A DNA stretch of 61,491 nucleotides, counting the filler, from Candidatus Fermentibacterota bacterium (lineage in GTDB: Bacteria; JAFGKV01): assembly GCA_016928395.1 (NCBI GenBank). It is 3 parts of 3 records of this genome, joined end to end, with 100 filler letters (N's around TTAATTAATTAA, not from the genome) between each part and the next. Parts side by side here need not be neighbours in the genome. Positions count along the whole stretch, not along the records: positions 28,703 to 48,705 come from JAFGKV010000211.1; 2 more parts are not named here. The stretch is one strand, 5' to 3'. Positions 31,911 through 53,058 of this stretch are shown here, piece by piece. The position numbers and the translations under genes were made by a program. How positions within the stretch are numbered: position 1 is the stretch's first letter; the number at the start of each line of letters is the position of its first letter. The notes beneath the pieces were generated by a model. It was not told where the DNA came from. It saw nothing but the letters and a program-made list of their open reading frames with translations, and made no database searches.

Positions 31911-31919
31911 CCAAGGCTC

Positions 31920-32414
31920 ATGAGCTGGTGGGAAGTCGCATTGCTTGTCCCGCTGGCGGGAGGGGTTCTTCTAGGTATCGCGGGCTCGGTGCTACCGCTG
32001 TTGCCGGGTCCTCCGCTCATTCTTGCCGTGGGGGCCGGGTATGCGTGGGTCACGGGATTCCGCCATCTTGGCTCGACCACTCTTATCGCTTTGGCGGTAT
32101 TGACCGCGGCGTCGATGGTGGTGGACTGGCTTGCAGGGGCTTTGGGCGCAGCCGGCGCGGGCGCATCCCGTCTCGCGGTGATCACTGCGACCGTGTTAGG
32201 GGTAGCGGGTCTGTTCCTTGGGCCATGGTGGGCCGTGGTGGCATTGCCTCTACTTGGTGTGGCGGCCGTCGAACGCATAGCGGGAAGGAGCACTCGTCGT
32301 TCCCTCCGTGCGGCCGCCGGCGTCGGAATAGGCACTGTCGTCTCCGGAATCCTCCGGGTCACGATCTCGGTGGCAATGGGGCTCATCATAGTATTCGGTT
32401 TCCTATCGAGCTGA
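31920..32414 (+). CDS. DUF456-like membrane protein
   Basis: GIAGSVLPLLPGPPLI and DWLAGALGA..AGAS motifs; highly hydrophobic. Confidence 0.75.
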   Translation: MSWWEVALLVPLAGGVLLGIAGSVLPLLPGPPLILAVGAGYAWVTGFRHLGSTTLIALAVLTAASMVVDWLAGALGAAGAGASRLAVITATVLGVAGLFLGPWWAVVALPLLGVAAVERIAGRSTRRSLRAAAGVGIGTVVSGILRVTISVAMGLIIVFGFLSS

Positions 32415-32733
32415 GTTCTGAGGCGACGAGTTCCCCGCCCGGCGGTGCGGCATGTGCTCAGGCGTCCGCGTGCGCGATCGTCTCGCAGGGGTTAGGGTTC
32501 TCCCAGCCGCTTGACCCCGCCCAATTGCGCCTGCTTCTTTGATCTCATCGCGTTTCGACGATCACGCTCACTGTGGGGGAGCGATGGATCTGAATCCTTT
32601 CTGTTCCATTGCACTCACGGGGCACAGGGCGACCCTCGGCACGTCGTGTCTCCCGCAGCGGGATCTACTCCTGAGCGCCTTGCAGCCGAAACGAGGGCAC
32701 GCTATTCGGTATTTCCTGACAGAGGTGATGAGC

Positions 32734-34881: not shown

Positions 34882-36378
34882 ATGGCAAAGCATATTGAGT
34901 TCGAGCCGTCACGGACTCTGACCGAGTTCCGGCTCCTTCCAGGGTGTACCACCGAGGCGACAACTCTGACCCACGTGAACCTCCAGACCCGTCTTGTACG
35001 GCTGGCCCGGGGCGATGGCTGGATGGGGATCAAGATCCCCCTGGTGGCCGCGGCCATGCAATCGGTATCCGGCGCGCGCATGGGTCTTGAGATGGCCCGG
35101 CTAGGGGGATTGGCCTTCATCTTCGCGTCGCAACCCATCGAGCGTCAGGTGGAGATGGTGCGGAGGATCAAGAACTACAAAGCAGGGTTTGTCACCCCCG
35201 AGACTGTGCCCGCCGACATGCCCATCAGCGAGCTGGCGGAGCTCACCCGCCGGCGCGGGTTCGCGACGTTTCCCGTGCTGGACGCATCAGGGGTGTTTGT
35301 GGGTCTCATCACCCGTAATGATTATGACGCGAACCGCCACGGTCACTTGCCGGTCCGTGACAGGATGATCGCCCGGCCTGCCCTGGCGGTGGGCGGCGTG
35401 TCCCAAGATCTCCGGGAGGCGAACGCCGTCCTCATGGACAGCCACCAGACCGTGCTCCCCATCGTGGATGCCCAGGACGCGGTGCGCTATCTGGTCTTCC
35501 GCAAGGACATCACGGATCATCTGGACAACCCGCTCCAGTTGGTGGACGGCCGAAAACGGCTGATGGCCGCGGCGGCGGTGAATACCCATGACTATGTGGA
35601 CCGGGTCAGCGCCTTGGTGGAAGCCGGTGTGGACGTGATCGCCGTGGATTCCTCCCATGGCCATTCGGTGTTCCAGGAAAGGACGCTGCACTGGATACGC
35701 ACCCACCATCCCGACCTGCCTGTGATTGGCGGCAATGTGATCACGGGGTCCGGGTTCGATTTCCTGGTGGAAGCCGGGGCCTGCGGGGTCAAGGTCGGCA
35801 TGGGCGGCGGTTCCATCTGCATCACCCAGGAGCAGAAGGGAACCGGGCGGGGTTTGGCCACGGCCATCATGAAGGTGGCCGAGGCCAGGGATGCCCATGC
35901 AGAACGCACCGGTAACTACATCCCGATCATCGCCGATGGAGGCATCGTGCATGCCAAGGACATCGTTGTCGCATTAGCGCTTGGCACCGACGTGGTGATG
36001 ATGGGCCGCTACTTCGCGCGTATGGACGAATCTCCCACCGAGAAAGTGACAATCAACAATCGGGTGATGAAACCGTACTGGGGCGAGGGAGCGCAGAGGG
36101 CGAGAGAGTGGAAGGCCGTGCGCTACCACCAGGCGGTCTTTGCCGAAGGCGTCGAAGGATTCGTCGAGTATGCAGGCAAACTGAGGGACAATCTGGACGA
36201 CACGCTGGCGAAGATTCGGGCATCCATGTCAACGTGTGGTGTTGCCACCATCGAGGAACTGCACTCAGGCGCGGAGTTGGAGCTGGTGTCGGCCCTTTCC
36301 ATTCGGGAGGGGCAGGTACACGACATCCACCTTCCTGGTCCCGAGGCGCTCTACGGCTCGACGAAGTGGGGAGACTGA
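34882..36378 (+). CDS. guaB: IMP dehydrogenase (with CBS pair)
   Basis: PLVAAAMQSV, VDSSHG, KVGMGGGSICIT, IIADGG, MMGRYFA, YWGEG, EGVEG. Confidence 0.96.
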   Translation: MAKHIEFEPSRTLTEFRLLPGCTTEATTLTHVNLQTRLVRLARGDGWMGIKIPLVAAAMQSVSGARMGLEMARLGGLAFIFASQPIERQVEMVRRIKNYKAGFVTPETVPADMPISELAELTRRRGFATFPVLDASGVFVGLITRNDYDANRHGHLPVRDRMIARPALAVGGVSQDLREANAVLMDSHQTVLPIVDAQDAVRYLVFRKDITDHLDNPLQLVDGRKRLMAAAAVNTHDYVDRVSALVEAGVDVIAVDSSHGHSVFQERTLHWIRTHHPDLPVIGGNVITGSGFDFLVEAGACGVKVGMGGGSICITQEQKGTGRGLATAIMKVAEARDAHAERTGNYIPIIADGGIVHAKDIVVALALGTDVVMMGRYFARMDESPTEKVTINNRVMKPYWGEGAQRAREWKAVRYHQAVFAEGVEGFVEYAGKLRDNLDDTLAKIRASMSTCGVATIEELHSGAELELVSALSIREGQVHDIHLPGPEALYGSTKWGD

Positions 36379-36379
36379 G

Positions 36380-37597
36380 GTGCCGGTCTACGTAGTGGTG
36401 GGAGCACAGTGGGGGGATGAAGGCAAAGGCAAGGTCTGTGATTTTCTGGCGGGGGCCATGGACCTGGTGGTTCGCTATCAGGGCGGCGCCAACGCGGGCC
36501 ATACCGTGGTGTTCGATGACAGGAAGATCGTTTTGCACCAGATCCCCAGCGGGATACTCTCTCCCCGCGCCCGGTCTGTCATCGGCAACGGGTGCGTGGT
36601 GGATCCCGTGATCCTGGCGTCGGAGATTCGAGAACTGGCTGCGGCGGGAGTGCATGTCGGACCGGAGAATCTCATCGTATCGCAGCATGCCCACCTGGTC
36701 ACGCCCCTGCATCGGTTTTTGGATGAGAAGCAGAACGGCGCCATCGGTACCACGGGCCGCGGGATAGGGCCCTGCTACACCGATAAGGCGCAGCGCAGCG
36801 GCATCCGTCTGGAGAGCCTGATGGATGGTTCATGGAGAGGCCGCATGCGGGAGCATGGGTCACGCCATGAGGATTTCTACCGCGTGGTCTACGGTGTGGG
36901 GTACATCGATGTCGAGGAGTCTATCAGGGCTTTGGAACCGGCAGTGGCGCTGCTGCAGCCTCTCATCGGCGATACCGCTCAGGTGGTTTGCGATGCCGTG
37001 TCCACGGGCGGCAGTATTCTGTTCGAAGGCGCTCAAGGTACCTTCCTGGACCTCGATCACGGGACCTATCCCTACGTGACATCGTCTACCACAACCGTTG
37101 GCGGCGCCATCAGCGGCGGGGGTGTCTATGTGCATTTTGACCGCCGCATCGCGGTGATGAAGGCCTACGCAACCCGAGTGGGAGAGGGGCCGTTTCCCAC
37201 CGAACTTACAGACGAGACTGGCCGAAGACTACGCGAAGTGGGCCGCGAGTATGGCGCTACAACGGGCCGTGCTCGGCGCTGCGGCTGGCTGGACCTGTCC
37301 ATGGGCCGGCGGGCCTGCATGATAAACGGGTTTGACTATGTCGTCCTCACCAAACTTGATTGTCTTTCCGGGCTTCCCGTCCTACGGGCTGCCGTGGGAA
37401 GGGCTTCGGACGGAACGCCCGACTACGTTGACATGGAGGGTTGGGATTCGAGCATTGCCGGCGTCACCTCCTTCCATGAACTGCCCGTTGAGGCCCGGCG
37501 CTATGTTGCATTCATCGAGGAATACCTGTGCGTGCCGGTGGGTATGATCTCCACCGGGCCGAGCCGTAGTGACATCATCATCAGGAAAGAACCATGA
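36380..37597 (+). CDS. purA: Adenylosuccinate synthetase
   Basis: GAQWGDEGKGK, QGGANAGHT, IGTTGRGIGP, EGAQG, GTYPYVTSS, GATTGRARRCGW. Confidence 0.98.
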   Translation: MPVYVVVGAQWGDEGKGKVCDFLAGAMDLVVRYQGGANAGHTVVFDDRKIVLHQIPSGILSPRARSVIGNGCVVDPVILASEIRELAAAGVHVGPENLIVSQHAHLVTPLHRFLDEKQNGAIGTTGRGIGPCYTDKAQRSGIRLESLMDGSWRGRMREHGSRHEDFYRVVYGVGYIDVEESIRALEPAVALLQPLIGDTAQVVCDAVSTGGSILFEGAQGTFLDLDHGTYPYVTSSTTTVGGAISGGGVYVHFDRRIAVMKAYATRVGEGPFPTELTDETGRRLREVGREYGATTGRARRCGWLDLSMGRRACMINGFDYVVLTKLDCLSGLPVLRAAVGRASDGTPDYVDMEGWDSSIAGVTSFHELPVEARRYVAFIEEYLCVPVGMISTGPSRSDIIIRKEP

Positions 37598-38676
37598 CCG
37601 AAATCCCCAGTGGTACCGATATCGATTTGGGAAATATGTGTTCCCGCATTGCCTATGACCACGCCGTACGGACCTTCGCCCATCGCGCCGGTAAACCCGG
37701 CGTGGTATGGTCGGGCTTGGACGGAAGCTTCTCCAATATTCTGCGTTTCGGCGATACGCGTATCGGCATCAGTTCGGACGGAATCGGAACCAAAGTGGAA
37801 GTCGCCGAACGGGTCGGATCGTACAGGACCTTGGGTTTCGACCTGATGGCTATGGTGGTGGACGATCTGGTCTCCAACGGCATTCGTCCCACGACCCTTT
37901 CCAATATTCTGGATGTGGATCACCTGGATCCCCAGGTCGTTGATGAGCTCATGAGCGGTCTCTGTGAGGCCGCGGCGGCCGCAGGGGTGACGGTGAGCGG
38001 AGGCGAGATTGCAGAACTGGGAAGCAGAGTCGTGGGGTGGGGTCACAAGATGCACTTCAACTGGTGCGCCACGGGGATTGGGTATCTCCCGGCGGACACC
38101 GAGCCTGTCGACGGTTCCCGCGTCCGGGTCGGTGATGCGGTGATCGCCTTGAAGAGCCGGGGCTTCCGCAGTAATGGGTTCTCGCGGATTCGTTCGATTA
38201 TGGAGGGTGTCTTCGGCGCATCATGGCATACCTCATGGTTCGATGAGTCACAAACCTGGGGCGAGGTATTGCTCACTCCTTCCTTTATCTACGCACCATG
38301 CGTGGCTGCCTTGCTGGATGAAGGCCACGCAGTCGTAGGTATCGCTCATGTCACCGGCGGCGGCATCCCAGACAACCTCGCCAGACCTTTGAGAGCCGGC
38401 ACATTCGGCGCCAGGCTGACAGAGCCGTATCCCCCGCTGCCAGTCATGCGCAAACTCCAGGAGTTGGGGGAGGTTCCCGAGCCCGAGGCATACCGGCTGT
38501 GGAACATGGGGAACGGGATGCTTCTCATCGTCGGTGCGGGGCATTCGCACGCAACGGTGGAACGCATTCGCGCAGCGGGATATGACGCGCGAATCGCGGG
38601 GACGGTGATTCCAGAACCTGTGATTTCACTGGAGACTGGCGGGCTGTGGCCCCAGACTCTGACATGGCCGGGGTGA
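37594..38676 (+). CDS. purM: AIR synthetase
   Basis: SDGIGTK, AMVVDDL, GGEIAEL, GFRSNGFS, AHVTGGG, WNMGNG. Confidence 0.95.
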   Translation: MTEIPSGTDIDLGNMCSRIAYDHAVRTFAHRAGKPGVVWSGLDGSFSNILRFGDTRIGISSDGIGTKVEVAERVGSYRTLGFDLMAMVVDDLVSNGIRPTTLSNILDVDHLDPQVVDELMSGLCEAAAAAGVTVSGGEIAELGSRVVGWGHKMHFNWCATGIGYLPADTEPVDGSRVRVGDAVIALKSRGFRSNGFSRIRSIMEGVFGASWHTSWFDESQTWGEVLLTPSFIYAPCVAALLDEGHAVVGIAHVTGGGIPDNLARPLRAGTFGARLTEPYPPLPVMRKLQELGEVPEPEAYRLWNMGNGMLLIVGAGHSHATVERIRAAGYDARIAGTVIPEPVISLETGGLWPQTLTWPG

Positions 38677-41600
38677 GTGCGGTGAGATCTGCGAGGTCAG
38701 AACCCGGGTCCACCACTCAGTTTGTTCAGCTCCTGTGGAAGAATGGCGCTCCCGACGCGACGGCGTCACGACTGGCTAGGGAAGCAATCGGTTATCTGCA
38801 TTTGGACACGGGCTCAGTCACATCCAGCAAGGTGTTTGTCTTGGCGCGTCCTCTGGATGACGCCACGCTCAGGTTACTTACCCGGGAAGCCTTGGCTGAC
38901 ACCATGGTGCATGAGGTAGGGATCAACGAGCTGTGGCCCGGCCCGGGCTTTGCCTCATTCATCCGGGTTGCCAAGCTTCCGGGGGTAACGGACGATGAAG
39001 GGATGTCGGCCCAGCGGGCATTGAGTGACCTCTTGAATGCCCAGGTTGACGCCACTCAGTGGATTCATACCGAAGACCTGTTCTACCTGGAGTGTTCTCT
39101 GGCTGACGCTGATCTACTGCGTATCGCGCGGGATGTGGTGGGCAATGAGTTGGTGCACCGGTTTGAAGTCGGTCCTTTGAGTCGGCTAGAACCGCCCGTC
39201 TGCAGCGGGGTGCCTCCAGAGCCGCCGGTGGTGGAGACCGTTCCCTTGGAAGACGATGACGATTGCCTCGAGAAGCTCTCCAAGGAACGGCTGTTGGCGT
39301 TGGACCGTGTTGAGATGCGTGCGATAAGGGATCACTTTTCCGACGCCTTGGTGCAATCCCGCCGCAGGGCCCAAGGGCTTGGGGCAGACCCGACGGACTG
39401 TGAGTTGGAGGTGCTGGCGCAGACCTGGTCTGAACACTGCAAGCACAAGGAGTTCAATGCCCTGATCACGTTTTGTGATGTGGACACCGGCGAGGTGCGC
39501 ATGGTGGACTCTTTGTTCGCCACCTACATCAAAGGTGCCACTGCCGTGGTGCAGGAGCGATTGCGTCTCGCGGGTGCCGGATGGCTACTGAGCGTATTTT
39601 CGGACAATGCCGGGGTCGTACGAATCGATGAAGACCGCGTCTTGGCGTGGAAGGTAGAAACCCACAATTCGCCCTCGGCCCTGGATCCCTACGGCGGAGC
39701 CCTGACGGGTATCGTTGGAGTTAATCGTGATCCCATGGGCACCGGTATCGGAGGGGGCAGATGTCTGTTCAACACCGACGTCCTCTGCTTTGGTGATCCC
39801 CGCCACGAGGGTGCGCTGCTGCCGGGCCAGCTTCATCCGAGGCGGGTAATGGCCGGCGTGGTCAAGGGCATCGAAGACGGCGGCAACAAGTCGGGTATTC
39901 CGACGGTGAACGGCGCGGTGGTGTTTGATGAACGGTTCGGGGGCAAGCCCCTGGTCTACTGCGGCACCGCCGCGGTGATGCCGGCGTTCTACCAGGGGCG
40001 CCCTTCCTGGGAAAAGCGGGTCGAGCCCGGCGATCGTATCGTGATGGCTGGGGGGCGCGTCGGTCGAGACGGAATCCATGGCGCCACATTCTCATCCCGA
40101 GAGATCGGCGATGACTCACCTCGCTCCGCGGTGCAGATCGGCAGCCCCATCACGCAGAAGAACCTGGCCGACTTCCTGGAGAAGGCTTGCGTCGAAGGCC
40201 TGGTTCGGTGCTGTACCGACAATGGCGCGGGGGGGCTCTCGTCCTCGGTGGGGGAGTTGGCGCGGCTATGCGGCGGTGCGGTGGTCTCTCTGGAGCACGT
40301 ACCCCTCAAGTACCCGGGTTTGGCCCCGTGGGAGATATTTCTTTCCGAATCGCAGGAGCGCATGACGTTGGTGGTGTCGCCGGACCGGTTACCCCGTCTT
40401 CTGGAACTGGCTGGCCGGTTCGAGGTCGAGGCGACGGACATCGGTCGTTTTGAGGCGTCGAACCTCCTGGACGTTCGTCACAAGGACCAGAGGGTTGCGC
40501 TACTGGATATGGACTTCCTTCACAACGGCGTACCACGCAAACACCTGGAGGCACAGTGGGGCAGCCCACAGCGCAGCGAGTTCAGGCTGCCGCTCATCCC
40601 TGACTACGGTGACATCCTCCTTACGCTCATGGGCAGTCTCAACATATGCTCTCGCGAAGGCATTGTGCGCCGATACGACCATGAGGTCAAAGGGCGTACC
40701 GTGGTCAAGCCGCTCATGGGCCCCGGCGGCCACGCCCCTCAGGACGCCGCGGTCCTGCGCCTGGGGTTCGATTCCTTCGCGGGCATTGCCGTGTCCAACG
40801 GGATCATCCCCCGCTACGGTGATATTGACCCGTATCACATGTCGGCAGGGGCATTCGACGAAGCGGTACGCAGCATCATCGCCGTGGGTGGGAGCCTTCC
40901 CGATTCAGAGAGCGGCGAACCATTCTGGTCGGTCAACGACAATTTCTGTGTTCCAGATTCCGTGTACCATCCTGTCACCAACCCCGACGGGAAAGTCAAG
41001 CTGGGCAAGCTGGTGCGTATGTGTGAGGCATTGTACGACATGGCCGTGTTCTACGGCGTTCCCCTGACCTCGGGCAAAGACAGTATGAAGAACGATCTTG
41101 TGCGTCAGGGCACGAAGATCTCCGTGCCGCCCACGGTGCTCTACTCCGCGGTGGCAGGCCTGCCCGATGTCCGGCTGGCGACCACCAGCGAGTTCAAGAG
41201 ACCGGGCGACCGGATCTATGTGGTGGGAAAGACCTATACTGAGCTGGGAGCCTCCGAGTTTCTGCGTCTCTTCGGGGAGGTGGGCGTCTCCGTGCCCTTG
41301 GTACGGAAAGAGGACGCCGTCCGGATCTATCACGCCCTGAGCAATGCCCACCGCCACCGGCTCGTGGCATCATGCCACGATGTGAGTGATGGCGGCCTGG
41401 CCGTTGCGCTGGCCGAATCGGCGCTGGGCTCCTGCCTCGGCATCCGTGTCGACATGGAGGCGGTCCAGAGCGATTTGGACGCGGCTTTGTTCGCCGAGTC
41501 GCACTCGCGCTTCGTGGTGTCGGTGGCGCCGAAGAACTGCCCGATCTTCGAATCCATAATGGATGATGATTGTCAGCTGATAGGGGAGGTGACCGGGTCG

Positions 41601-41699
41601 AATCGTCTTTTGTTTTCCTGGGGAATTGAGCCCATCATTGATCTGGAGCTGGAAGAGGTGGTCCGCCGATGGCGCAGCGGTCTTGAGGGTTTGATATGA
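38673..41699 (+). CDS. purL: FGAM synthase PurL with long N-terminal (PurS-like) extension
   Basis: QTWSEHCKH, DNAG, KVETHNSPS, DGIHGAT, DNGAGG, SESQER, SGKDSM, CHDVSDGGL; start uncertain (38646-38673). Confidence 0.95.
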   Translation: MSAVRSARSEPGSTTQFVQLLWKNGAPDATASRLAREAIGYLHLDTGSVTSSKVFVLARPLDDATLRLLTREALADTMVHEVGINELWPGPGFASFIRVAKLPGVTDDEGMSAQRALSDLLNAQVDATQWIHTEDLFYLECSLADADLLRIARDVVGNELVHRFEVGPLSRLEPPVCSGVPPEPPVVETVPLEDDDDCLEKLSKERLLALDRVEMRAIRDHFSDALVQSRRRAQGLGADPTDCELEVLAQTWSEHCKHKEFNALITFCDVDTGEVRMVDSLFATYIKGATAVVQERLRLAGAGWLLSVFSDNAGVVRIDEDRVLAWKVETHNSPSALDPYGGALTGIVGVNRDPMGTGIGGGRCLFNTDVLCFGDPRHEGALLPGQLHPRRVMAGVVKGIEDGGNKSGIPTVNGAVVFDERFGGKPLVYCGTAAVMPAFYQGRPSWEKRVEPGDRIVMAGGRVGRDGIHGATFSSREIGDDSPRSAVQIGSPITQKNLADFLEKACVEGLVRCCTDNGAGGLSSSVGELARLCGGAVVSLEHVPLKYPGLAPWEIFLSESQERMTLVVSPDRLPRLLELAGRFEVEATDIGRFEASNLLDVRHKDQRVALLDMDFLHNGVPRKHLEAQWGSPQRSEFRLPLIPDYGDILLTLMGSLNICSREGIVRRYDHEVKGRTVVKPLMGPGGHAPQDAAVLRLGFDSFAGIAVSNGIIPRYGDIDPYHMSAGAFDEAVRSIIAVGGSLPDSESGEPFWSVNDNFCVPDSVYHPVTNPDGKVKLGKLVRMCEALYDMAVFYGVPLTSGKDSMKNDLVRQGTKISVPPTVLYSAVAGLPDVRLATTSEFKRPGDRIYVVGKTYTELGASEFLRLFGEVGVSVPLVRKEDAVRIYHALSNAHRHRLVASCHDVSDGGLAVALAESALGSCLGIRVDMEAVQSDLDAALFAESHSRFVVSVAPKNCPIFESIMDDDCQLIGEVTGSNRLLFSWGIEPIIDLELEEVVRRWRSGLEGLI

Positions 41700-42505
41700 G
41701 CGCCCGTGCTCTGGTTCTCACCGGGTTTGGCATCAACTGCGAAGAGGAGACCGCTGCCGCCTTTCGGCTGGCGGGCGCCGAGGCCGATATTGTGCACCTG
41801 AACGAGATCTTTGACGAGAGCCGTTCGATCAACGAGTTCGATGTGCTGGCTTTGCCGGGAGGTTTCTCCTTCGGCGACGATCTGGGTGCTGGAAAAGCAC
41901 TGGCAAACAAGCTGCTGCACAAACGAACCGCTTCCGGTGTGAGATTCCGGGACGAGATCGAGAGATTCTTGGGTGATGGGAAGTTCATCTTGGGCATATG
42001 CAATGGGTTCCAGATCCTCGTGAAGATGGGGCTCTTGCCCGACACGGCCGGGCGAGGAGAGCAGGAAGTGACACTGACTCTGAACGAGAGGGGCCGATTC
42101 GAGGATCGCTGGTGTCGTTGTGTTGCCTCGATGCCGTGGCGGACCCCGTTTCTTTGGGGCATTTCCGCCATCGAGTTGCCGGTCAGGCATGGCGAGGGTA
42201 AGCTGGTCATTCGCGATGAGGTCGTACGACACGCCATCCTTTCCCAGGGGCTCAACTGCCTGACATACTGCGACGACGCCGGAAGGCCCACAGATGAGTA
42301 CCCGCATAACCCGAATGGCTCCCAGCTGGCATGCGCGGGCCTGACCGACAGCTCGGGGCAGATTCTGGGCATGATGCCGCATCCCGAAGCATACTTGTCT
42401 GTCTACAATCACCCAAACTGGGGAAGCGGGACGTTCGACCAAAGCTCTGAGGCAGGGGAGGGCCTGGCCGTCTTTCGCAATATCGTGGAGCACGTGAATC
42501 GATGA
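41696..42505 (+). CDS. purQ: FGAM synthase glutaminase subunit
   Basis: GFGINCE, PGGFSFGD, GICNGFQ, HGEG, NPNGS, MMPHPE. Confidence 0.96.
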   Translation: MSARALVLTGFGINCEEETAAAFRLAGAEADIVHLNEIFDESRSINEFDVLALPGGFSFGDDLGAGKALANKLLHKRTASGVRFRDEIERFLGDGKFILGICNGFQILVKMGLLPDTAGRGEQEVTLTLNERGRFEDRWCRCVASMPWRTPFLWGISAIELPVRHGEGKLVIRDEVVRHAILSQGLNCLTYCDDAGRPTDEYPHNPNGSQLACAGLTDSSGQILGMMPHPEAYLSVYNHPNWGSGTFDQSSEAGEGLAVFRNIVEHVNR

Positions 42506-44136
42506 CACAGACCGACCATCGCGACGCGCAGCTTATTCCGATACGTCGGGCACTGCTGAGCGTTGCCGACAAGAGGGGCATTGAGGACCTGGCGCGCTGC
42601 CTGGCATCGTTTGGGTGCGAGCTCATCGCCAGCGGTGGCACCCGCGATCATCTGGCGTCTGCAGGCATTCATTCCACTGATGTCTCAGAGCTCACCGGCA
42701 ACCCCAGTGCCTTCGAGGGCCGCATGAAGACGATCTCCTTCTCCTTGGCCTCGGCGTTGTTGTTCGATCGTGATCGTCACGGTGACGAGGCAGAGAGGCT
42801 TGGGATCGTGCCCGTAGACATGGTGGTGTGCTCGTTCTATCCCTTCGCCGAAGCCCGGGCCCGGGGCCTGCCCCTGGAGGAGCTTGTGGAGTTCATCGAC
42901 ATTGGTGGGCCCACCATGGTTCGTGCGGCGGCTAAGAACGCGCGGTACGTGGCGGTGGTGACCGACTGTGCGGACTATCCCCGTCTCCAGGCCGAACTGA
43001 CTCAGCATGAAGGGGCGCTGTCGCTGGAGACGCGGCGCGGTCTCATGCGCGAGGCGTTTGCCCTCACGGCGGACTACGATGCCGCCATCAGCACCGCGCT
43101 GGATGAGAATGCGGGGGCGTCCTCCTTGCGAATCGCAATGGAGCGGGGTCGCCCCGTGCGATACGGCGAGAATCCCCACCAGCGCGCGACAATCTACCGG
43201 ATCCGGGGCGCGACTCATGCGCTGCACGACTGCCCCTTGCTCCACGGCAAGGAACTCTCATACAACAACATGGTGGATCTGCAGCGAGCCTTGGAAGCAG
43301 TCCGCGACCTTCCCCGCCACGGTGTCGCGATCATCAAGCATACCAATCCCTGCGGTCTCGCAGACGCCGAGGATCAGCACCGTGCCTTTGAACTTGCGTG
43401 GGAAGGGGATCCGATTTCCGCCTTCGGCTCGGTGGTGGCCTTTTCGACTCCCCTGAGTCTGGAAACCGCCCAGTTCCTGGAACTGGGCCATCCGGACAAA
43501 GCGAGGCGCAAGTTCATCGAGGTGATCGCAGCTCCAAGGTTTCAGGATGAGGCATTGGTGTACCTGCGCCAACACCGGAACCTCCGGGTGGTGGTGGCCG
43601 ACGCAAAGAGGCTGGATTCCCCCACGGAGATACGGGTTGCCATGAACACGGCTCTACTCCAGGCCACGGACCGTCGGCTGCTGGAGGAACTCACGCCGGT
43701 GGGCGAGTGTAACCGTGACCTGGATCGTCCGCTCATCGAGTTTGGACTGACGGCCGTGCGGCAGCTGGCATCCAATGCCATTGCCGTGGTACACCGGGTG
43801 CCCGATGGGGCCTGCCAGCTGTTGGGCATGGGATGCGGCCAGCCGAACAGAGTCGGCGCCATCGCTCTGGCCCTGACTGCCTGCATGGCGACCCTGGCCC
43901 GCCGGCATCCGGAGCCGGCGGGGTTTGACGCCTTCGTGAGCGAGACACTGGCGTGCGCGGTGCTCACGTCCGATGCCTTCTTCCCCTTCCCAGACAACGT
44001 AGATGCCTGCGCCAGGGGCGGCATCCCAGTGGTGGTGCAGCCCGGCGGATCCATCCGCGATCCGGAGGTCATCCAAAGGGCGCACGAATGCGGCATCACT
44101 ATGGTATTCTCCGGTCTTCGCCACTTCCGGCACTAG
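42502..44136 (+). CDS. purH: AICAR formyltransferase / IMP cyclohydrolase
   Basis: RALLSVADK, IDIGGPTM, RYGENPHQ, SYNN, KHTNPCG, SDAFFPF, QPGGS, RHFRH. Confidence 0.97.
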   Translation: MTQTDHRDAQLIPIRRALLSVADKRGIEDLARCLASFGCELIASGGTRDHLASAGIHSTDVSELTGNPSAFEGRMKTISFSLASALLFDRDRHGDEAERLGIVPVDMVVCSFYPFAEARARGLPLEELVEFIDIGGPTMVRAAAKNARYVAVVTDCADYPRLQAELTQHEGALSLETRRGLMREAFALTADYDAAISTALDENAGASSLRIAMERGRPVRYGENPHQRATIYRIRGATHALHDCPLLHGKELSYNNMVDLQRALEAVRDLPRHGVAIIKHTNPCGLADAEDQHRAFELAWEGDPISAFGSVVAFSTPLSLETAQFLELGHPDKARRKFIEVIAAPRFQDEALVYLRQHRNLRVVVADAKRLDSPTEIRVAMNTALLQATDRRLLEELTPVGECNRDLDRPLIEFGLTAVRQLASNAIAVVHRVPDGACQLLGMGCGQPNRVGAIALALTACMATLARRHPEPAGFDAFVSETLACAVLTSDAFFPFPDNVDACARGGIPVVVQPGGSIRDPEVIQRAHECGITMVFSGLRHFRH

Positions 44137-44180
44137 GCTCTCCAATGAACACACAGGCGTCTTTCCCGGCGAGGTAGGTC

Positions 44181-45578
44181 ATGACTCTCACCCAATTCCG
44201 AAGCCCCCAACTACTGCATGTGCACTCGGGAAAGGTGCGGGAGAGCTTCCGCATCGATGCCTCCACGAGACTCATCGTCACCACCGACCGGGTTTCCGCG
44301 TTTGACCGGGTGCTGGATACGCCCATACCAGACAAAGGCGTGGTGCTGAACGAGCTTTCCGCGTTCTGGTTCGGGAAAACCGCAGACATTGTGGAGAATC
44401 ATTTCATCACGTCGGTGGATTCCCAGGCGATGCTGGTGAGGGAGGTTCTGCCCATCAGAGTCGAGCTGATCGTCCGTGGCTATCTCACGGGTTCCATGTG
44501 GCGTCAGTACGCCCAAGGCGTGCGCCGATTCTCCGGGGTTTCCGTGCCGGATGGGCTGGCGAGGAATGCCCGGTTCGCAGAGCCGCTCCTCACGCCCACC
44601 ACCAAGGAGGAATCTGACCGCGAGATCACGCCCCAGGAGATCGTGGCCTCGGGGCTGGTCAGCGGGGATCTCTCCTCGCAGATGGAGACTGCCGCCTTGA
44701 AGCTGTTCGCCTCAGGGACCGAGTTCCTGCGGGACAGGGGAGTACTTCTGGTGGACACGAAGTATGAGTTCGGCGTGCTGGAGGGCAGGCTGATCCTGAT
44801 CGACGAGATACATACCCCCGATTCCTCGCGCTTCTGGCGTGCCGACTCCTATGAGGCGGATCCCGCGCACCCCTTCAACCTCGACAAGGAGTATATCAGG
44901 GCGTTTCTCCTGGAACAGAAAGCCGCAGCCGGCGTAACGACTTCACTGCCCGCGGAGGTAGTGGATGAGGCCCGCGCCCGCTATGGAAGGATCTACGAGC
45001 TCACGGTTGGGTCCCCGCCCCCCAGGAGTGCAGTCCCGCCGGAACACAGGCTCTACCACAACCTGGTGGCGCACGGCATTATCCGGGACGGATTCGTGGC
45101 CGTGGTCATGGGCTCCCCCAAGGATGCCGATCATGCCCGGCGTCTGGCCTCGGTGCTGGAGGGGTACGGCGTCTCTGTTGATCTGCGGGTGGTATCGGCC
45201 CACAAGAACCCTGAGGACGTGGCGAAGGTCCTTGCCCACTACGCCGACTCCGCCGAGCCCGGCGCCATTATCGCGGTGGCAGGCATGTCCAATGGCCTGG
45301 GTGGGGCCCTGGCGGGCAGTACAACGCTTCCCGTGATCAACTGCCCGCCGTTCAAGGATGGTGTTGACCTTCAGACCAATGTCAATTCGTCGTTGATGAT
45401 GCCCTCCGGCGTGCCGGCTGCCACGGTGATCAGCCCGCAGAACGCCGCCATGGCTGCCCTTCGAAGCCTCAATCTGCCGCGCTTGAAACACGTGTTCCAG
45501 GAAGAGATTGCCGCCACCAAGGCTACGTTGAGGGAGAGCGACAATTCCATAAGGCACGACCGGAAAGCCAGCGCATGA
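44181..45578 (+). CDS. purC: Bifunctional SAICAR synthetase / class II AIR carboxylase (PurC-PurE fusion)
   Basis: N-term GKVRE, TDRVSAFD, TPTTK, DTKYEFG, DEIHTPDSSRFW; C-term (from ~45090) VVMGS, RVVSAHK, AVAGMSNGL, PVINCPP, SSLMMPSG in one uninterrupted frame. Confidence 0.93.
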   Translation: MTLTQFRSPQLLHVHSGKVRESFRIDASTRLIVTTDRVSAFDRVLDTPIPDKGVVLNELSAFWFGKTADIVENHFITSVDSQAMLVREVLPIRVELIVRGYLTGSMWRQYAQGVRRFSGVSVPDGLARNARFAEPLLTPTTKEESDREITPQEIVASGLVSGDLSSQMETAALKLFASGTEFLRDRGVLLVDTKYEFGVLEGRLILIDEIHTPDSSRFWRADSYEADPAHPFNLDKEYIRAFLLEQKAAAGVTTSLPAEVVDEARARYGRIYELTVGSPPPRSAVPPEHRLYHNLVAHGIIRDGFVAVVMGSPKDADHARRLASVLEGYGVSVDLRVVSAHKNPEDVAKVLAHYADSAEPGAIIAVAGMSNGLGGALAGSTTLPVINCPPFKDGVDLQTNVNSSLMMPSGVPAATVISPQNAAMAALRSLNLPRLKHVFQEEIAATKATLRESDNSIRHDRKASA

Positions 45579-45624
45579 CGACGGATCTCCATCACGCAGT
45601 CGCCTGTTCTAGAGGGGAACCGTT

Positions 45625-47031
45625 GTGAAGTGTGAACCGTCAACCGTGAACCCTTTGTTTCCTGGGTCCCGCGCTATCTCCCCGCTGGACGGGCGCTACC
45701 GGGCGAAGACCGGGGGCCTGGCGAAGTACTTCTCTGAATCTGCCCTGATGCGGGCGCGTTGTGACATCGAGTTGCACTATCTGAGGGCCCTGGATGAGAC
45801 AGGTCTGTTCCCGGCCCTCACGGACGAGGAGTCATCCCGCATCCGCCAGGCGATGTCGTCATTCACCGATCATGATTTTGCCCGCATCAAGGAGATCGAG
45901 CGCCAGATCAATCACGATGTGAAAGCCTGCGAGGTCTTTCTCCGGGAACGGCTTGACCTTGCCACGCCAGGCATGATTCACTTCGGGCTGACGTCCGAGG
46001 ATGTGAACAACCTGGCGTATTCCAGGTTACTCTCCCGCTTCTGCAGCGGCGATCTGCTCCCTCTGCTGGTCTCGCTCATCCGGGCGTTGTGCGGGAGAGT
46101 CATCCAGTGGCGCGACATCGCGTTCCCGGCACGGACCCATGGGCAGAAGGCGTCGCCCTCGACTCTGGGCAAGGAGATGGCGGTGTTTGTGGACCGGCTC
46201 CTCCGCCAGCACGGGGCCTTGGCTTCCATGCGTTTCCGGGGCAAGTTCGGGGGCGCCACGGGCACGGGTGCTGCGTGGAGGGCGGCGTTTCCGGAGTTCG
46301 ACTGGCTTGCCTTCTCATCGACATTCGTCGAGGCTCTGGGAATGGAGCCGGCATTGGCCACGACCCAGATTGAAGGTCATGACGAATGGGCGGGCTTCTT
46401 CGCCGCGGTGAGCAGGGTCAACGGGATCGTGCGGGATCTGGACATCGATATCTGGCTGTATGAGACGCTCGGCTACCTTGGTGAGTGCGTCAAGGGAGCC
46501 GAGGTCGGTTCCTCCACCATGCCCCACAAGGTGAATCCCATCAGGTTCGAGAACAGCGAGGGGAATCTCCATATGGCCGATGCCCTGTTGGCCATGCTGA
46601 GTCGCGAGCTCACCCACAGCAGACTTCAGCGCGACCTCTCCGGCAGCACTCTGATGCGAAACATGGGCGTGGCGCTCACCCATACCTATCTGGCATGGCA
46701 GCAAACGCGGGAAGGGCTTGACCGGCTGGAGGTTCGGCAGGCGCGATGCGCCAAAGACCTGGATGAGAGCATCGAACTCCTGGCGGAGCCTCTGCAAAGC
46801 ATACTCCGGGCCGAGGGCATGACCGACGCCTACGATACCGTGCGTCTGTTCGTTCGGGGCCGCGGCATAGACCAACGCGACCTGGAGGAATTCATCCAGT
46901 CGCTGCCCGTGCCAGAGAGGGTGAAGGCACGGCTCAGGAACCTGCGGCCCGGCCTCTACACCGGCTATGCGGGCGAGGTATGCGATCGCGTGTTGGCCGC
47001 CGCCAATGAGGTTATTGGGGAGGTGACATGA
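45625..47031 (+). CDS. purB: Adenylosuccinate lyase
   Basis: ISPLDGRY, NHDVKA, HFGLTSEDVNN, ARTHGQ, GSSTMPHKVNPIRFENSEGN. Confidence 0.97.
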   Translation: MKCEPSTVNPLFPGSRAISPLDGRYRAKTGGLAKYFSESALMRARCDIELHYLRALDETGLFPALTDEESSRIRQAMSSFTDHDFARIKEIERQINHDVKACEVFLRERLDLATPGMIHFGLTSEDVNNLAYSRLLSRFCSGDLLPLLVSLIRALCGRVIQWRDIAFPARTHGQKASPSTLGKEMAVFVDRLLRQHGALASMRFRGKFGGATGTGAAWRAAFPEFDWLAFSSTFVEALGMEPALATTQIEGHDEWAGFFAAVSRVNGIVRDLDIDIWLYETLGYLGECVKGAEVGSSTMPHKVNPIRFENSEGNLHMADALLAMLSRELTHSRLQRDLSGSTLMRNMGVALTHTYLAWQQTREGLDRLEVRQARCAKDLDESIELLAEPLQSILRAEGMTDAYDTVRLFVRGRGIDQRDLEEFIQSLPVPERVKARLRNLRPGLYTGYAGEVCDRVLAAANEVIGEVT

Positions 47032-48266
47032 GGCTTCTGGTCTTAGGATCCGGAGGTAGGGAACACGTCTTGGCGTGGAAGCTGGCCGAGAGCCCCGGCG
47101 CAGAGGTTTTCGTGGCCCCGGGCAATGGCGGCACTCTCCACAATGTGTCTCTCAATCCGAGCGATTTCCCGGCGGTGGAGGATTTCTGCTCCCGTGAGCG
47201 CATCGATCTCTTGGTAGTCGGGCCCGAGGCCCCGCTGACCGCCGGCATCTCCGATCACTTGGAAGGATCGCCAGTCAGGGTCTTCGGCCCCCGCAGCGAC
47301 GGCGCCCGTTTGGAGGGTTCCAAGATCTGGGCCAAGCAGTTCATGGAGCGCCACGGCGTCTCCACGGCTCGGTTCTGGGCCTTCGATCCGGGGGATGACC
47401 CCGGCCCCGTGATTCACGCGCTGCGAGGTGATCTTGTGGTGAAACTGGACGGTCTGGCAGCGGGCAAGGGGGTGATCGTCTGCACCGCGGAAGACCAGGC
47501 ATGGAAGGCATTGGAGGATTTCAGGCGGTCGTTCGGCGACGCGCCCTTCCTCATCGAGCAGAGGCTCACCGGCAGGGAGGCGTCCATCATCGGCATTACC
47601 GATGGTTCGACGATTCGCCTTCTCCAGGCGTCGCAGGATCACAAGCGGGCTCATGAGGGAGAGAGGGGGCCCAATACGGGCGGTATGGGAGCGTATGCCC
47701 CTGCGCGATTCTGCGACCGGCGTCTGATGGGTCTAATACACCGCCGGGTCATTGCACCGACGCTGGAGGGTCTGCGCCGGGAGGGCATCCCCTACTGCGG
47801 CGCCATCTACTTCGGTCTGATGATCACTCCCGACGGCCCCTTCCTCCTGGAGTACAATGTGCGGTTCGGCGATCCCGAGGCTCAGGTGATTCTGCCACCC
47901 TTGGCGGGTGACCTCGCGGTCTTGATGGCGGCCTGTGTGGATGGCAGGCTGAGGGAGACTTCGGTGGCATTTCATCCCGGCTGTCATGTCGGTGTGGTCA
48001 TGGCGTCGAAGGGCTATCCCGGGGCCTGCGAGACCGGGTTCAGGATCACGGGCCTGGACAAGGTTCCCCCGGATGTACGCGTCTTCCATGCAGGTACCCG
48101 CCGGTCACGCGAAGGCGTGGAGACTGCAGGAGGCCGGGTACTGACCGTGGTGGGTCATCACGCCAGGCTGGAAGGAGCCATGGCACAGGCATATCGGGGC
48201 GTGGAGAACATCGGGTTCGAGGGCGCATGGTTCCGTCGCGACATCGGCACCCAGGGGCGTGCATGA
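47028..48266 (+). CDS. purD: GAR synthetase
   Basis: GSGGREH, APGNGG, VGPEAPL, LEGSK, DGLAAGKGV, QDHKR, GPNTGGMG, EYNVRFGDPE. Confidence 0.98.
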   Translation: MRLLVLGSGGREHVLAWKLAESPGAEVFVAPGNGGTLHNVSLNPSDFPAVEDFCSRERIDLLVVGPEAPLTAGISDHLEGSPVRVFGPRSDGARLEGSKIWAKQFMERHGVSTARFWAFDPGDDPGPVIHALRGDLVVKLDGLAAGKGVIVCTAEDQAWKALEDFRRSFGDAPFLIEQRLTGREASIIGITDGSTIRLLQASQDHKRAHEGERGPNTGGMGAYAPARFCDRRLMGLIHRRVIAPTLEGLRREGIPYCGAIYFGLMITPDGPFLLEYNVRFGDPEAQVILPPLAGDLAVLMAACVDGRLRETSVAFHPGCHVGVVMASKGYPGACETGFRITGLDKVPPDVRVFHAGTRRSREGVETAGGRVLTVVGHHARLEGAMAQAYRGVENIGFEGAWFRRDIGTQGRA

Positions 48267-48705
48267 AGAGACGGATCGCTCTTCTCATCTCGGGCCGTGG
48301 CTCCAATATGGAGGCCATTCTCCTGCAGGCTCGCACAGGTGTACTGGCCCATTGTTGCGACCCGGTGGTGGTGGTGTCCAGCAGGCCCCATGCCGCCGGA
48401 ATCGCCGTTGCCCAGGCCTTGGGGGTCAGCACTCGAGTGCTTTCGTCCAAGGGCGTCCATCGCGCACAGTATGACGAAGACCTCATTTCCTTGCTGGAGC
48501 CCTATCGTCTTGACTACCTGGTGTTGGCAGGGTTTATGCGCATCCTCGGCCCCCGGGTGGTGGAGCGCTATCGGGATCGGATTGTGAACATCCATCCGGC
48601 TGATCCGGCGCAGTTCAAAGGCATCGGCGGCTATAGATGGGCCTGGCAGAGTGGATTGAAGGCCACCATGGTGACGGTGCATCTGGTGGACGAAGGCGTG
48701 GATAC
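48263..48705 (+). CDS. purN: GAR transformylase (3' truncated by contig edge)
   Basis: ISGRGSNM, LAGFMRIL, NIHP, TVHLVDEGVD. Confidence 0.93.
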
Positions 48706-48805
48706 NNNNNNNNNNNNNNNNNNNNNNNNNNNNNNNNNNNNNNNNNNNNTTAATTAATTAANNNNNNNNNNNNNNNNNNNNNNNNNNNNNNNNNNNNNNN
48801 NNNNN
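48706..48805. other. Artificial contig linker
   Basis: N-run, TTAATTAATTAA, N-run; 100 bp. Confidence 0.99.
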
Positions 48806-50388: not shown

Positions 50389-53058
50389 TCAGTCGATCAG
50401 CACGAGCACACGCGTGGTGACGAGACTCGGTGTCGAGAGGCGGGCGAGGTAGACGCCGGGGCCGCAGCGCGTCCCGTCGTCGGTGAGTCCGTCCCAGATC
50501 GTGCGGTGGAGGCCGGCGGGGAAGTCGGCGTCAGCAGGCGTTGCGACCAGGTGGCCCGCCAGGTCATGAATCGTGAGAGTCGCTTCGGACGGGTGGGCAA
50601 GATGGAAGCCGAGGACGGTCCGCCCATGAGAAGGGAGGGGGAACGTAGCCAGGTAGGTGGGCAAGAAATCCGCCTCCTCAGACGGCCCGAGGCCCACGCC
50701 AAAGCGCCACGCCGGGCTCAGCAGGCCGCGCTCGGTCCCGTCGAACGCGAAGGCGCGCCACCAGAACACGCCTTGGCCGGGAAGCTGAGGACTCCATGAT
50801 CCCGCGCCGTCTGCCACCTGAATTTCGCCCGAGGCCGCTATGAGCATCGTGAGCAGGGAATCACCGTACAGGAAAAACCCGCATGTCAGGGAGTCGCCAT
50901 CGGGATCGGGACTGACTGCGACCGAAAGAACCGGCAGTACCACTAGGGAGCCGTCGGGGGGGTTGAGGGGAGTCGGCGGCCCCGGCGGCGTGTTGCCCGG
51001 GGTCGGGCCGGCAATCTGCACATCATCGATATGCCACCCGTCGGCAGTGATGGACACGTCGGTCTCGAGACGAAACCGAAGGAGAAAGGAGGTCGACCCC
51101 TGGAATTGATCCAAACCATGGGCAACCTGGCGCCACGGGGCACTCCCGCTGTACTGGGGCCCAAGCTGCCGCCATGCGGCCCCGCCATCGCCGGAGGCTT
51201 CGACAATGCAGTGGTCATATCCCTCCTCGGTGCTGTAGCGATGCCAGAACGAGAGCTCTGCTCCCGGCACCGACGAGAGATCCACCGCATGGGCGAGGCG
51301 AACCGCGGAATCGGCGTAGTTTTCATAGGAGGCACCGGGGGAATCTGTCAGCGAGGTAACAGGTGAGTTCGCGTCTTCCACCGTCAGGCCCCAGGATCCC
51401 TCGGGGACCCAGGCGCCCAAATCACCCTCGAAGTCATCGAAGAAGAGCGCCGGTGGGCGCCCCACCCTAAACCGCACACGTTCCTCGCCCACAAAACCAG
51501 AGGTGTGTGCACGAACTATCATGGTGATGATATGGCCCTGGGGGGCCGAATCGTCAACGCTGAACACGATATCAGAGCACTGCACGGTATCCTGGGCTGC
51601 CAGCCCGGGGATGGCAGCACCGGGAGTATGTAGCAGCACGTAGGCATCATCGGTCGTGAGCGAGATGGTCCCGGGGGAAGCGGAAGCGGTTACCGCCCGA
51701 TTCTCCATGGCGAAGGTCACGCGGATGGTCTCGCCGGGGTCGATTCGCCCGTCGCCATTGCCGCCGCCAATGCCCCAATCCGCCACCGCAAGCCATATCC
51801 CTGCGCTCTGGGACGCGTGGAGCAACGGCGCCCGGCACTCCTCGATCAGAGCGGGCACTTCATGCTCGGCAGGCCAGAAGCCCGAGCCGCCGATTTCAAT
51901 GGTCGACGAGATGATGCGGTTCTTGGCCTCCGTATCTCCGTAGGCATAGTCGGTGGTCATGCCACTACACAGGTACAGCACCTCGGCAGGCTGGGCCACC
52001 GCATAGCCATTGTCGGCGCTGAGCCGGCGCGCCCAAGTGCGCAGGAGATCGTCATCGGGAGCGGGGGCACTGGTGTAGCCCCAGGGGATGAGCGCAGCGC
52101 CGAGAAACGAGTGCATGGAGAGGTGGGTCACGAGTCTGCGGGATACCATGAACGCGATGATGGCTTGGGTCTCAGGCTCCGACGAAGGGGCCGGCCCGCG
52201 ATACACATTGCTGGCCGGATCCGCGGATGACCCGTCGTCCCGGCCCCACTCATAGGAATAGTTGCGGTTGAGGTCGACGCCGAATGTCCCGTTCCCATTG
52301 TCTCGGCGGTTCTTGCGCCACATGCCCCCGCCCTGGGGATTGACCTGTTCGTTGTAGACCATGCCGTCAGGATTGACCACGGGAACAAGGAAGATCTGCC
52401 GCTGGTCCACCACGGCACGTATCTCAGGATCATCGTCGTAGCCAGAGCAGAGAAGACGCGCAAAGTCAAGAATGGTCTCGACAGACATCACCTCCCGCGC
52501 GTGGTGGAGGCCATCGATGAGGATTTCGGGCTCGTCTTCATCGAGGTGTGGGTTGTCGCTTATCTTCAGCGCCCAGATGGGGCGACCCTCGTGGCTAGTG
52601 CCCAAAGAGAACGGCGCGGCGGTGATGGCCGGGCACGCGGCATGCACGCTGTCCAACAAGGCTTTCGCCTCGGCAAGCGTGTGGTAGATCCCCCATGCCG
52701 GGCCGCGGATCCCCGCGGCGTAGCGAGCTTCAAGGTCCTCGATCTCCACGTGGACGGCGTACCCTGACCCACGCAACCGATGTAGGGTGGCCGGATCGGT
52801 TACAATCCAGCAGATGTCTCCCTTCCTACCGATCACATCAATGCCAGAAGTCACCGGCAGCGGATCCGTTGTCTCGATCCGCGCCTGGACATGCCGTGCG
52901 TGCGCGGCGCCGCAGAAGGCAGCTGCACCGAGACTGATCAGCGCCCAGGCGATGGGGAGCGGGCATCGGCCCCAGAAACGAAGCCCGCCGGCCCCGGATG
53001 GACTGCTCAGCCTTCCACCTTGTCCCACGCCTCCGGGATCTCTGCGGGAAACGACCAC
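50389..53058 (-). CDS. Secreted M14 zinc carboxypeptidase (CPT-like) with FlgD-Ig/T9SS-like C-terminus
   Basis: HHARE, NPDG, WRKNRR, GVDLNRNY, MHSF, TIEIG; C-terminal WDGLTDDGTRCGPGVYLARL; true start probably downstream of 53058. Confidence 0.9.
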   Translation of the reverse strand: MVVSRRDPGGVGQGGRLSSPSGAGGLRFWGRCPLPIAWALISLGAAAFCGAAHARHVQARIETTDPLPVTSGIDVIGRKGDICWIVTDPATLHRLRGSGYAVHVEIEDLEARYAAGIRGPAWGIYHTLAEAKALLDSVHAACPAITAAPFSLGTSHEGRPIWALKISDNPHLDEDEPEILIDGLHHAREVMSVETILDFARLLCSGYDDDPEIRAVVDQRQIFLVPVVNPDGMVYNEQVNPQGGGMWRKNRRDNGNGTFGVDLNRNYSYEWGRDDGSSADPASNVYRGPAPSSEPETQAIIAFMVSRRLVTHLSMHSFLGAALIPWGYTSAPAPDDDLLRTWARRLSADNGYAVAQPAEVLYLCSGMTTDYAYGDTEAKNRIISSTIEIGGSGFWPAEHEVPALIEECRAPLLHASQSAGIWLAVADWGIGGGNGDGRIDPGETIRVTFAMENRAVTASASPGTISLTTDDAYVLLHTPGAAIPGLAAQDTVQCSDIVFSVDDSAPQGHIITMIVRAHTSGFVGEERVRFRVGRPPALFFDDFEGDLGAWVPEGSWGLTVEDANSPVTSLTDSPGASYENYADSAVRLAHAVDLSSVPGAELSFWHRYSTEEGYDHCIVEASGDGGAAWRQLGPQYSGSAPWRQVAHGLDQFQGSTSFLLRFRLETDVSITADGWHIDDVQIAGPTPGNTPPGPPTPLNPPDGSLVVLPVLSVAVSPDPDGDSLTCGFFLYGDSLLTMLIAASGEIQVADGAGSWSPQLPGQGVFWWRAFAFDGTERGLLSPAWRFGVGLGPSEEADFLPTYLATFPLPSHGRTVLGFHLAHPSEATLTIHDLAGHLVATPADADFPAGLHRTIWDGLTDDGTRCGPGVYLARLSTPSLVTTRVLVLID

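Follow-up and report, generated by a model that had tools for sequence, protein, structure and literature searches.

The question raised by this locus is whether a bacterial gene with the domain order of animal PAICS encodes a CO2-using enzyme that dispenses with PurK, and whether the bacterial and animal fusions share an origin. The gene, purC-purE(II), lies in a purine operon of Candidatus Fermentibacterota bacterium (assembly GCA_016928395.1), within a stretch of 61,491 nucleotides (nt) that we analyzed as a whole and refer to as the window. The original prediction, made from the DNA sequence alone, read the gene as a fusion of PurC, the synthetase of succinylaminoimidazole carboxamide ribonucleotide (SAICAR), to a class II PurE, an enzyme that carboxylates 5-aminoimidazole ribonucleotide (AIR). 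Our analysis of the sequence, its relatives and its predicted structure favors a bifunctional AIR-to-SAICAR enzyme with class II PurE behind a long-type PurC, which would be CO2-dependent, PurK-independent and convergent with PAICS as a fusion; we put the probability of this reading at roughly 0.8. The gene and the parts of it on which the argument turns are as follows.

44181..45578, + strand: purC-purE(II) fusion gene, a single open reading frame (ORF) with an ATG start, 465 aa plus stop, no internal stop
44181..45068, + strand: SAICAR synthetase (PurC) half, residues 1-296, long yeast/mycobacterial type by Pfam, NCBIfam, solved relatives and tree
45069..45575, + strand: class II PurE (AIR carboxylase) half, residues 297-465, with Pfam AIRC at residues 306-434 (nt 45096-45482)
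45195..45206, + strand: S339-A340-H341-K342, catalytic Ser/His and class II-specific Lys, from alignment columns
45279..45302, + strand: A367-G-M-S-N-G-L-G374 loop, with Met in place of the Arg of class II 'AGRSNGLG', from alignment columns
45342..45350, + strand: C388-P-P390, class II 'CPP' motif, from alignment columns

In the proposed scheme the C-terminal class II PurE domain would carboxylate AIR directly with CO2 to give 4-carboxy-AIR (CAIR), with no need for ATP, bicarbonate-dependent PurK or N5-carboxyaminoimidazole ribonucleotide (N5-CAIR). The N-terminal long-type PurC domain would then ligate CAIR and aspartate, using ATP, to form SAICAR, which PurB, from the next gene, would cleave. 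The PurE domains most likely form the usual octameric PurE core with the PurC domains outside, as in PAICS, and this octameric arrangement could favor the hand-over of CAIR between the PurE and PurC sites. We infer CO2 and AIR as the substrates, and likewise organism-wide PurK independence, the octamer and channeling.

Pfam assigns SAICAR_synt (PF01259) to residues 14-247 of the protein (E 7.8e-66) and AIRC to residues 306-434 (E 6.5e-35), while the NCBIfam PurC models span residues 2-296 and the PurE model residues 306-432. The single 465-aa ORF that had been predicted, with a SAICAR synthetase domain followed by a PurE domain, was recovered at the same coordinates with both Pfam domains. All of the motifs quoted for it are present: GYLTGSMW, LRVVSAHK, AVAGMSNGLG, PVINCPP and SSLMMPSG start at residues 100, 335, 365, 384 and 403, respectively. 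The PAICS motifs given in the original prediction agree with the alignment to human PAICS (2h31), which reads rvtSAHK, AVAGRSNGLG, PVISCPP and SSLRLPSG. The sequence GAGG lies 8-11 nt upstream of the ATG. LarB, a PurE-like enzyme of nickel-pincer cofactor synthesis, was considered as an identity and ruled out, with 16.1 bits vs an NCBIfam cut-off of 175.

The PurE half is class II by its signature residues, solved relatives and tree placement, as had been claimed for it. An alignment of 146 PurE domains, 19 of them class I and 127 class II, contains four columns that are at least 80% conserved within each class and differ between the classes, and the window protein sides with class II at each of them (K342, S370, N371 and C388). 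The column after the catalytic His is Arg in 19/19 class I rows and Lys in 114/127 class II rows. The two columns of the 70s loop are A/A in every one of the 19 class I rows and S/N specifically in class II, and the CPP column, before the conserved Pro, is Val in 16/19 class I and Cys in 113/127 class II rows. Catalytic residues common to both classes are kept (G311, S312, D315, S339, A340 and H341), and the class I motifs SAHR and AGxAAHL are absent. In the 120 best relatives from a 5.8-billion-protein collection, the window's own entry included, H341, S339, D315 and S312 are invariant, and K342 and C388 each occur in 116. According to the available portion of PMC9376930, the human PAICS residues are His303 as general base, Ser301 for binding of the imidazole, Asp277 for the ribose, and Lys304, Ser274 and Ser276 for the phosphate.

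Among solved structures, the PurE half matches Bombyx PAICS (E 3e-28), human PAICS (6e-26) and Treponema denticola PurE (4e-22) ahead of the class I enzymes, of which M. jannaschii PurE (SAHR, AGLAAHL) scores 4e-16 and the others 6e-15 or weaker. By domain match and by fold it belongs with PurE/AIRC: the predicted model superposes on T. denticola PurE with a template modeling (TM) score of 0.85-0.86 and a root-mean-square deviation (rmsd) of 2.4 Å at 34% identity. T. denticola PurE (3rg8/3rgg), a characterized bacterial class II AIR carboxylase, shares the class II signature and fold with the window half but consists of 159-aa chains of PurE alone and falls in a different class II subclade. 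Class I PurE, as in E. coli, where it works with PurK, has the fold and the Ser-Ala-His and Gly-Ser-x-x-Asp elements in common with the window, but carries SAHR, AGxAAHL and V-P in place of the SAHK, AGxSNGL and C-P-P of the window.

Rows for the PurE trees came from a PurE-half search of 1.84 billion cluster representatives (2853 matches at E<=1e-3, 463 at <=1e-10 and 13 at <=1e-30), of which 150 representatives were taken, from 80 genome loci, and from E. coli PurE. The loci were kept from a scan of genome contigs that matched at least 597 stretches and is not a census. Leaving out 29 rows of fragmentary or ambiguous architecture and the frameshifted locus L010 gave a quick tree of 146 rows, and a careful tree was built from 57 (49 class II, 8 class I). 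In the 57-row tree the 49 class II rows, including the window, are separated from all 8 class I rows by a branch of length 1.76 with 100/100 support, and the two classes are also apart in the 146-row tree, with a support of 100 in the Shimodaira-Hasegawa-like approximate likelihood ratio test (SH-aLRT). The fused locus L016 (7922-9340) and 4 of the 120 relatives have SAHR instead of SAHK, keep CPP and still lie in the class II clade, so the class Lys is not absolute.

Several points weigh against a CO2-using fusion that is convergent with PAICS. Both halves score below the NCBIfam equivalog cut-offs (301 vs 371 bits for the PurC model NF009251, and 106 vs 149.6 bits for the PurE model TIGR01162), and the arginine of AGRSNGLG, Arg331 in human PAICS, is Met369 in the window. 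The absence of purK covers 61.5 kb of the genome, and purK may lie elsewhere. At high CO2 a class I PurE, too, can do without PurK (PMC3261824, section 11), so purK absence alone is not diagnostic. The monomer model, for its part, does not support a PAICS-like quaternary arrangement or channel. Finally, when the window and PAICS clades were forced together in the 57-row tree, the cost was 32.5 log-likelihood units (lnL) and the approximately unbiased (AU) test gave p-AU 0.013, but the group so tested had been named after the tree was seen.

The alternative that survives best, improbable as we judge it, is that the PurE half is an N5-CAIR mutase with class I chemistry that needs a PurK from outside the window, the fusion merely co-localizing two steps. 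It can appeal to the 61.5 kb of genome on view, to the missing AGRSNGLG arginine, and to the SAHR found in the 4 family members and in fused L016. It is opposed by the class II residues at all four discriminating columns and by the position of the window deep in the 100/100 class II clade. The surroundings of purE genes also speak against it. Among the 80 loci kept, purE has a PurK-like ORF no more than 10 kb away at 8/18 SAHR-type loci vs 0/19 class II loci (Fisher p 0.001; the loci are not phylogenetically independent, and the 19 include L021); class I purE thus often adjoins purK. In the window, NCBIfam finds neither purK nor purF in the guaB-to-purN gene run, which contains no PurK-like ORF, and a six-frame tblastn search of the 61.5 kb with E. 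coli PurK, the query being taken from locus L081, gave no PurK-like sequence (best E 2.2). The earlier statement that no purK lies in the visible guaB-purN operon therefore holds for the whole window. T. denticola PurE itself is said, in work of Tranchimand and colleagues from 2011, to bind AIR and CO2 and not N5-CAIR.

Less probable still is a PurE half that is catalytically impaired and acts mainly as an oligomerization scaffold for PurC, with CAIR coming from another route. The replacement of the loop arginine by Met is one point in its favor. The original prediction quoted AVAGMSNGLG correctly but did not remark on the Met at this position. In a computed model described in the available portion of PMC9376930, human Arg331 approaches the AIR phosphate. 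Position 369 in the 120 relatives is, however, R in 60, L in 52, M in 5, and A, C and Q in one each; with R in only half of them, the loop arginine is not defining for the bacterial fusion family. A Lys or Arg at position 313 or 314 accompanies its loss, being present in 32/60 relatives without the loop Arg vs 3/60 with it (Fisher p 3e-9, relatedness ignored), and the window protein has K314. This pattern suggests, as a possibility, that the phosphate contact has been relocated from the loop Arg to a basic residue at 313/314, and not that the site has decayed. The scaffold alternative is further opposed by the catalytic residues that are invariant in 120/120 relatives, by K342 in 116/120, and by a tblastn search of the window with E. 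coli PurE, in which the next-best match after the fusion (E 1e-10) is weak (E 0.40).

A scaffold role is made plausible by the predicted self-assembly of the PurE half, which also counts in favor of the class II AIR carboxylase reading. Four PurE halves are predicted to assemble, with an interface score (ipSAE) of 0.87 (0.00 in the best-scoring of 3 controls), agreement between runs in 85% or more of contacts, and a partner pLDDT (predicted local distance difference test) of 87 or more. In calibration the mark was reached by 20/30 solved pairs and 1/23 single chains. PurE octamers have already been solved, so the assembly prediction shows likeness and is not proof.

The PurC half is of the long yeast/mycobacterial type by sequence and tree, and PAICS is of the short type; the suggestion that it looks like the long yeast/plant-type was therefore sound. 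Among solved proteins, residues 1-296 are matched best, in both sequence and fold, by yeast Ade1 (E 2.7e-55 for 1a48) and M. abscessus PurC (structures 1a48, 3r9r and 6yvq for the two), at 34-38% identity. The predicted PurC half superposes on them with TM 0.81-0.84 and rmsd 2.4-3.1 Å. Unlike the window protein, both are single-domain proteins, and in yeast CAIR is the product of a combined PurK-class I PurE protein. In a phmmer search the window PurC half gave no match to the PurC domain of PAICS; the match to PAICS was confined to one stretch. The PAICS-type representatives P0139 and P0252 instead match the short-type PurCs of M. jannaschii, C. perfringens and E. coli. Scored against a long-type profile, PAICS-type domains reach 21-47 bits, long-type fusions at least 100, and the purC products of the 80 loci 261-538. 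Eight E. coli PurC residues that contact CAIR or ADP are given in the available portion of PMC3261824 (K11, K13, R94, S100, D175, E179, R199 and R215); the window counterparts of these eight are K18, R20, R99, S105, D192, E196, R217 and R240, so that 8/8 are conserved, one as Lys to Arg.

These assignments bear on the reading of the gene as a PAICS ortholog, moved already fused between animals and bacteria by horizontal transfer, which we consider very improbable. Animal PAICS (human 2h31/6yb8, Bombyx 4ja0) has the same PurC-then-class II PurE order, the same two consecutive reactions and, in its PurE domain, the same SAHK, SNGLG and CPP motifs as the window, and it is the best full-length fold match and the best sequence match of the PurE half. 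It differs from the window in its short-type PurC domain, the subclade of its PurE half, its arginine at the Met position, and its domain arrangement. In the PurC tree (85 rows), a branch of length 2.54 with 100 SH-aLRT parts 74 long-type rows, including the window, from 10 PAICS-type domains and E. coli PurC, the last being flagged as a long-branch join. Anchors of the PurE tree were checked against the PDB: P0139 and P0252 are PAICS (2h31, E 1e-154 and 1e-148) and P0198 is T. denticola-like, and PDB matches and profile scores are the basis of labels for architecture such as 'PAICS-type'. The window PurE clade in the 57-row tree has 12 rows, all fused genes, with 100/100 support. It is nested in starred clades of 25 and 27 rows that contain Peregrinibacteria class II purE and other fusions and no PAICS-type rows, and the main PAICS clade (7/8 PAICS-type rows) sits in a separate starred clade.

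The overall structure points the same way. An AlphaFold2 model of the fusion (37-row alignment) has a mean pLDDT of 90.4 and a predicted TM score (pTM) of 0.86. A full-length Foldseek search of the PDB ranks PAICS first (E 2e-29), yet the superposition, over about 460 columns with both domains aligned, has an rmsd of about 23 Å and TM 0.46-0.53. Good superposition half by half and poor superposition at full length indicate that the predicted domain arrangement differs from that of PAICS, as judged from a monomer model.

Taken in turn, the separate PurC and PurE trees that the original prediction had called for place the PurE half away from class I (100/100) and group neither half with PAICS, in keeping with its proposal of a convergent fusion. 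The window PurC clade (99-supported) holds the same fused relatives as the window PurE clade, which implies that the halves travelled together, and this agreement between the halves' own trees points to one fusion event for the window clade. Metagenome-assembled genomes (MAGs) in this clade are labelled Calditrichota, Cloacimonadota, Atribacterota, Bipolaricaulota, Verrucomicrobiota, Bacteroidota and Chlorobiota, along with two labelled Pseudomonadota, labels that are doubtful. Since the PurC half is long-type and that of PAICS short-type, and since the AU test rejects the PurE half as a sister of PAICS, the phylogeny supports a fusion that arose in bacteria from a long-type purC adjoining a class II purE, independently of animal PAICS.

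The last alternative, an assembly or sequencing artefact in which the stop codon between two adjoining genes was lost, has a negligible claim: unfused adjoining purC and class II purE do occur in other lineages (7 loci), but both Pfam domains are found in one protein of 455-500 aa in 120/120 of the best relatives, a single fused ORF occurs in 11 independent genome records, the junction residues R290, N294, L295, I301, D303 and G304 are conserved among the fused relatives (120 best), and the junction region (residues 281-310) is modelled at a block-mean pLDDT of 92-97.

The gene belongs to a large, uncharacterized bacterial fusion family that is visible in databases and apparently undescribed. 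Over 94-100% of its length the window protein shares 53-75% identity with the 119 other cluster representatives, the upper value being that of its closest relative. Among named sources a Candidatus Eisenbacteria MAG comes nearest, at 67%, and Caldithrix, KSB1 and Cloacimonetes are also represented. In databases the relatives are called PurC, 'AIR carboxylase family protein', 'hypothetical protein' or, wrongly, 'fusion protein PurCD' (some JGI entries). We found no description of a prokaryotic PurC-PurE fusion in the literature searched, most subscription journals being outside its reach.

On the sequences compared, class II PurE is widespread outside animals, and so is its fusion to purC. The original prediction had called class II PurE rare in bacteria; this did not hold, since both the fusion family and stand-alone class II purE are widespread in uncultivated lineages. 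Among the 150 representatives of the PurE-half search, SAHK occurs in 128 and the class I pair SAHR and AAHL in only 2. The architectures of the 138 non-fragment representatives comprise 49 stand-alone proteins, 34 long-PurC fusions, 14 PurN-PurC-PurE, 10 PAICS-type, 9 fusion fragments, 1 reversed PurE-PurC and 21 others, with the Pfam scan covering 147/150 representatives (P0268-P0270 left out). Of the 80 loci kept, at least 11 have a single fused ORF, at least 7 a separate purC adjoining class II purE and at least 18 an SAHR-type purE. The 7 adjoining, unfused pairs listed come from Peregrinibacteria, Treponemataceae, Thermaceae and Anaerolineae. In the Treponemataceae MAG (L029) purC and class II purE are adjoining, overlapping ORFs and not one ORF as in the window.

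Other fused forms were also seen. P0157, P0169, P0180, P0184, P0191, P0193, P0209, P0210, P0217, P0228, P0232, P0240 and P0267 (Pfam-confirmed), together with P0253, are PurN-PurC-PurE(II) triples of about 596-689 aa and one reversed PurE(II)-PurC of 525 aa. An Aggregatilineales MAG (L034, 15318-16949) has a 544-aa ORF with a PurK-like part and a class I PurE part (residues 380-540), an order that is also that of yeast Ade2. In the PurC tree, the stand-alone purC genes of Hymenobacter isolates (L011 and L013; L012 is not in the tree) fall within the clade of fused genes, as sister to fused L004. The three isolate loci (L011-L013, about 9890-11330) have only an ORF of 127-141 aa after purC, with no PurE match, and in the Hymenobacter MAG L010 (9956-11360) the PurE part is in another frame, reads SAHD and has no SNGL or CPP motif. 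From these sequences, the PurE half of the Hymenobacter loci appears to have decayed or been lost secondarily.

A wider scenario can be offered tentatively, and we think it doubtful. Class II PurE may be primarily prokaryotic and deeply diverse, fused to purC several times in bacteria (the window clade, the L015/P0174 clade, the PurN-PurC-PurE triples and the reversed PurE-PurC), with the PurE domain of PAICS as one late offshoot among prokaryote-type sequences. On this view the fused bacterial protein would act as a convergent machine for channeling CAIR, and would spare many anaerobic lineages both PurK and one ATP per purine. A class II-like PurE without PurK is present in Archaeoglobus, and a published account ascribes it to transfer from a eukaryote; a prokaryotic origin, if true, would invert the published order of events, in which prokaryotes received their class II genes from eukaryotes.

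The reviews PMC10484210, PMC10912719 and PMC9376930 state, in their available portions, that bacteria make CAIR by PurK and class I PurE and that direct carboxylation with CO2 is animal, with T. denticola as the prokaryotic example. PurK and PurE have been proposed as antibacterial targets on the basis of this contrast between bacteria and animals. The fusion family is neither a new reaction nor a new fold; it appears to have arrived by a route of its own at the 'animal' chemistry and the 'animal' order of fused domains. Confirmation by assay would extend the recognized range of class II PurE, provide a natural second example for testing substrate channeling by a PurC-PurE fusion (for human PAICS, time courses with 13C-bicarbonate/CO2 have been run; PMC8988938), and tie purine synthesis in mostly uncultivated lineages to CO2 availability.

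The fusion gene takes the place of purC and purE in a run of purine genes defined by ORF coordinates and NCBIfam assignments.

34882..48757, + strand: whole purine operon, guaB-purA-purM-purL-purQ-purH-[purC-purE]-purB-purD-purN
34882-36378, + strand: guaB
from 36236, ends 37597, + strand: purA ORF
37594-38676, + strand: purM
38646-41699, + strand: purL
41696-42508, + strand: purQ
42502-44136, + strand: purH
45625-47031, + strand: purB
47028-48266, + strand: purD
48227-48757, + strand: purN

Taken at its longest, the purA ORF shares 143 nt (36236-36378) with the end of guaB. The true purA start is probably downstream of the start of this ORF, because PurA models match only from residue 52. The purL product, at 1017 aa, has about 200 extra N-terminal residues and an FGAR-AT linker domain (208-268) as in large PurL, with the glutaminase PurQ still encoded by a separate gene; no purS ORF was seen in the operon. 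The product of purN is short (176 aa) and matches only positions 2-144/145 of formyltransferase models of 181 and 192 positions, and a frameshifted continuation, looked for in other frames, was not found. Rfam reports neither a riboswitch nor any other RNA family in the window, and ARAGORN no tRNA.

Upstream of guaB, at 28771-34275, are four co-directional ORFs: two GTPase/dynamin-like (500 and 546 aa), one of 217 aa without a family match, and one of 578 aa with a weak match to a glutamate-synthase region. Three predicted peptidases are encoded elsewhere in the window, namely a 751-aa caspase-domain protein at 1820-4078 (- strand), a 2134-aa Peptidase_C25 protein with CARDB repeats at 19589-25993, and an 888-aa M14 carboxypeptidase with an FlgD_ig-like C-terminus at 50389-53058 (- strand).

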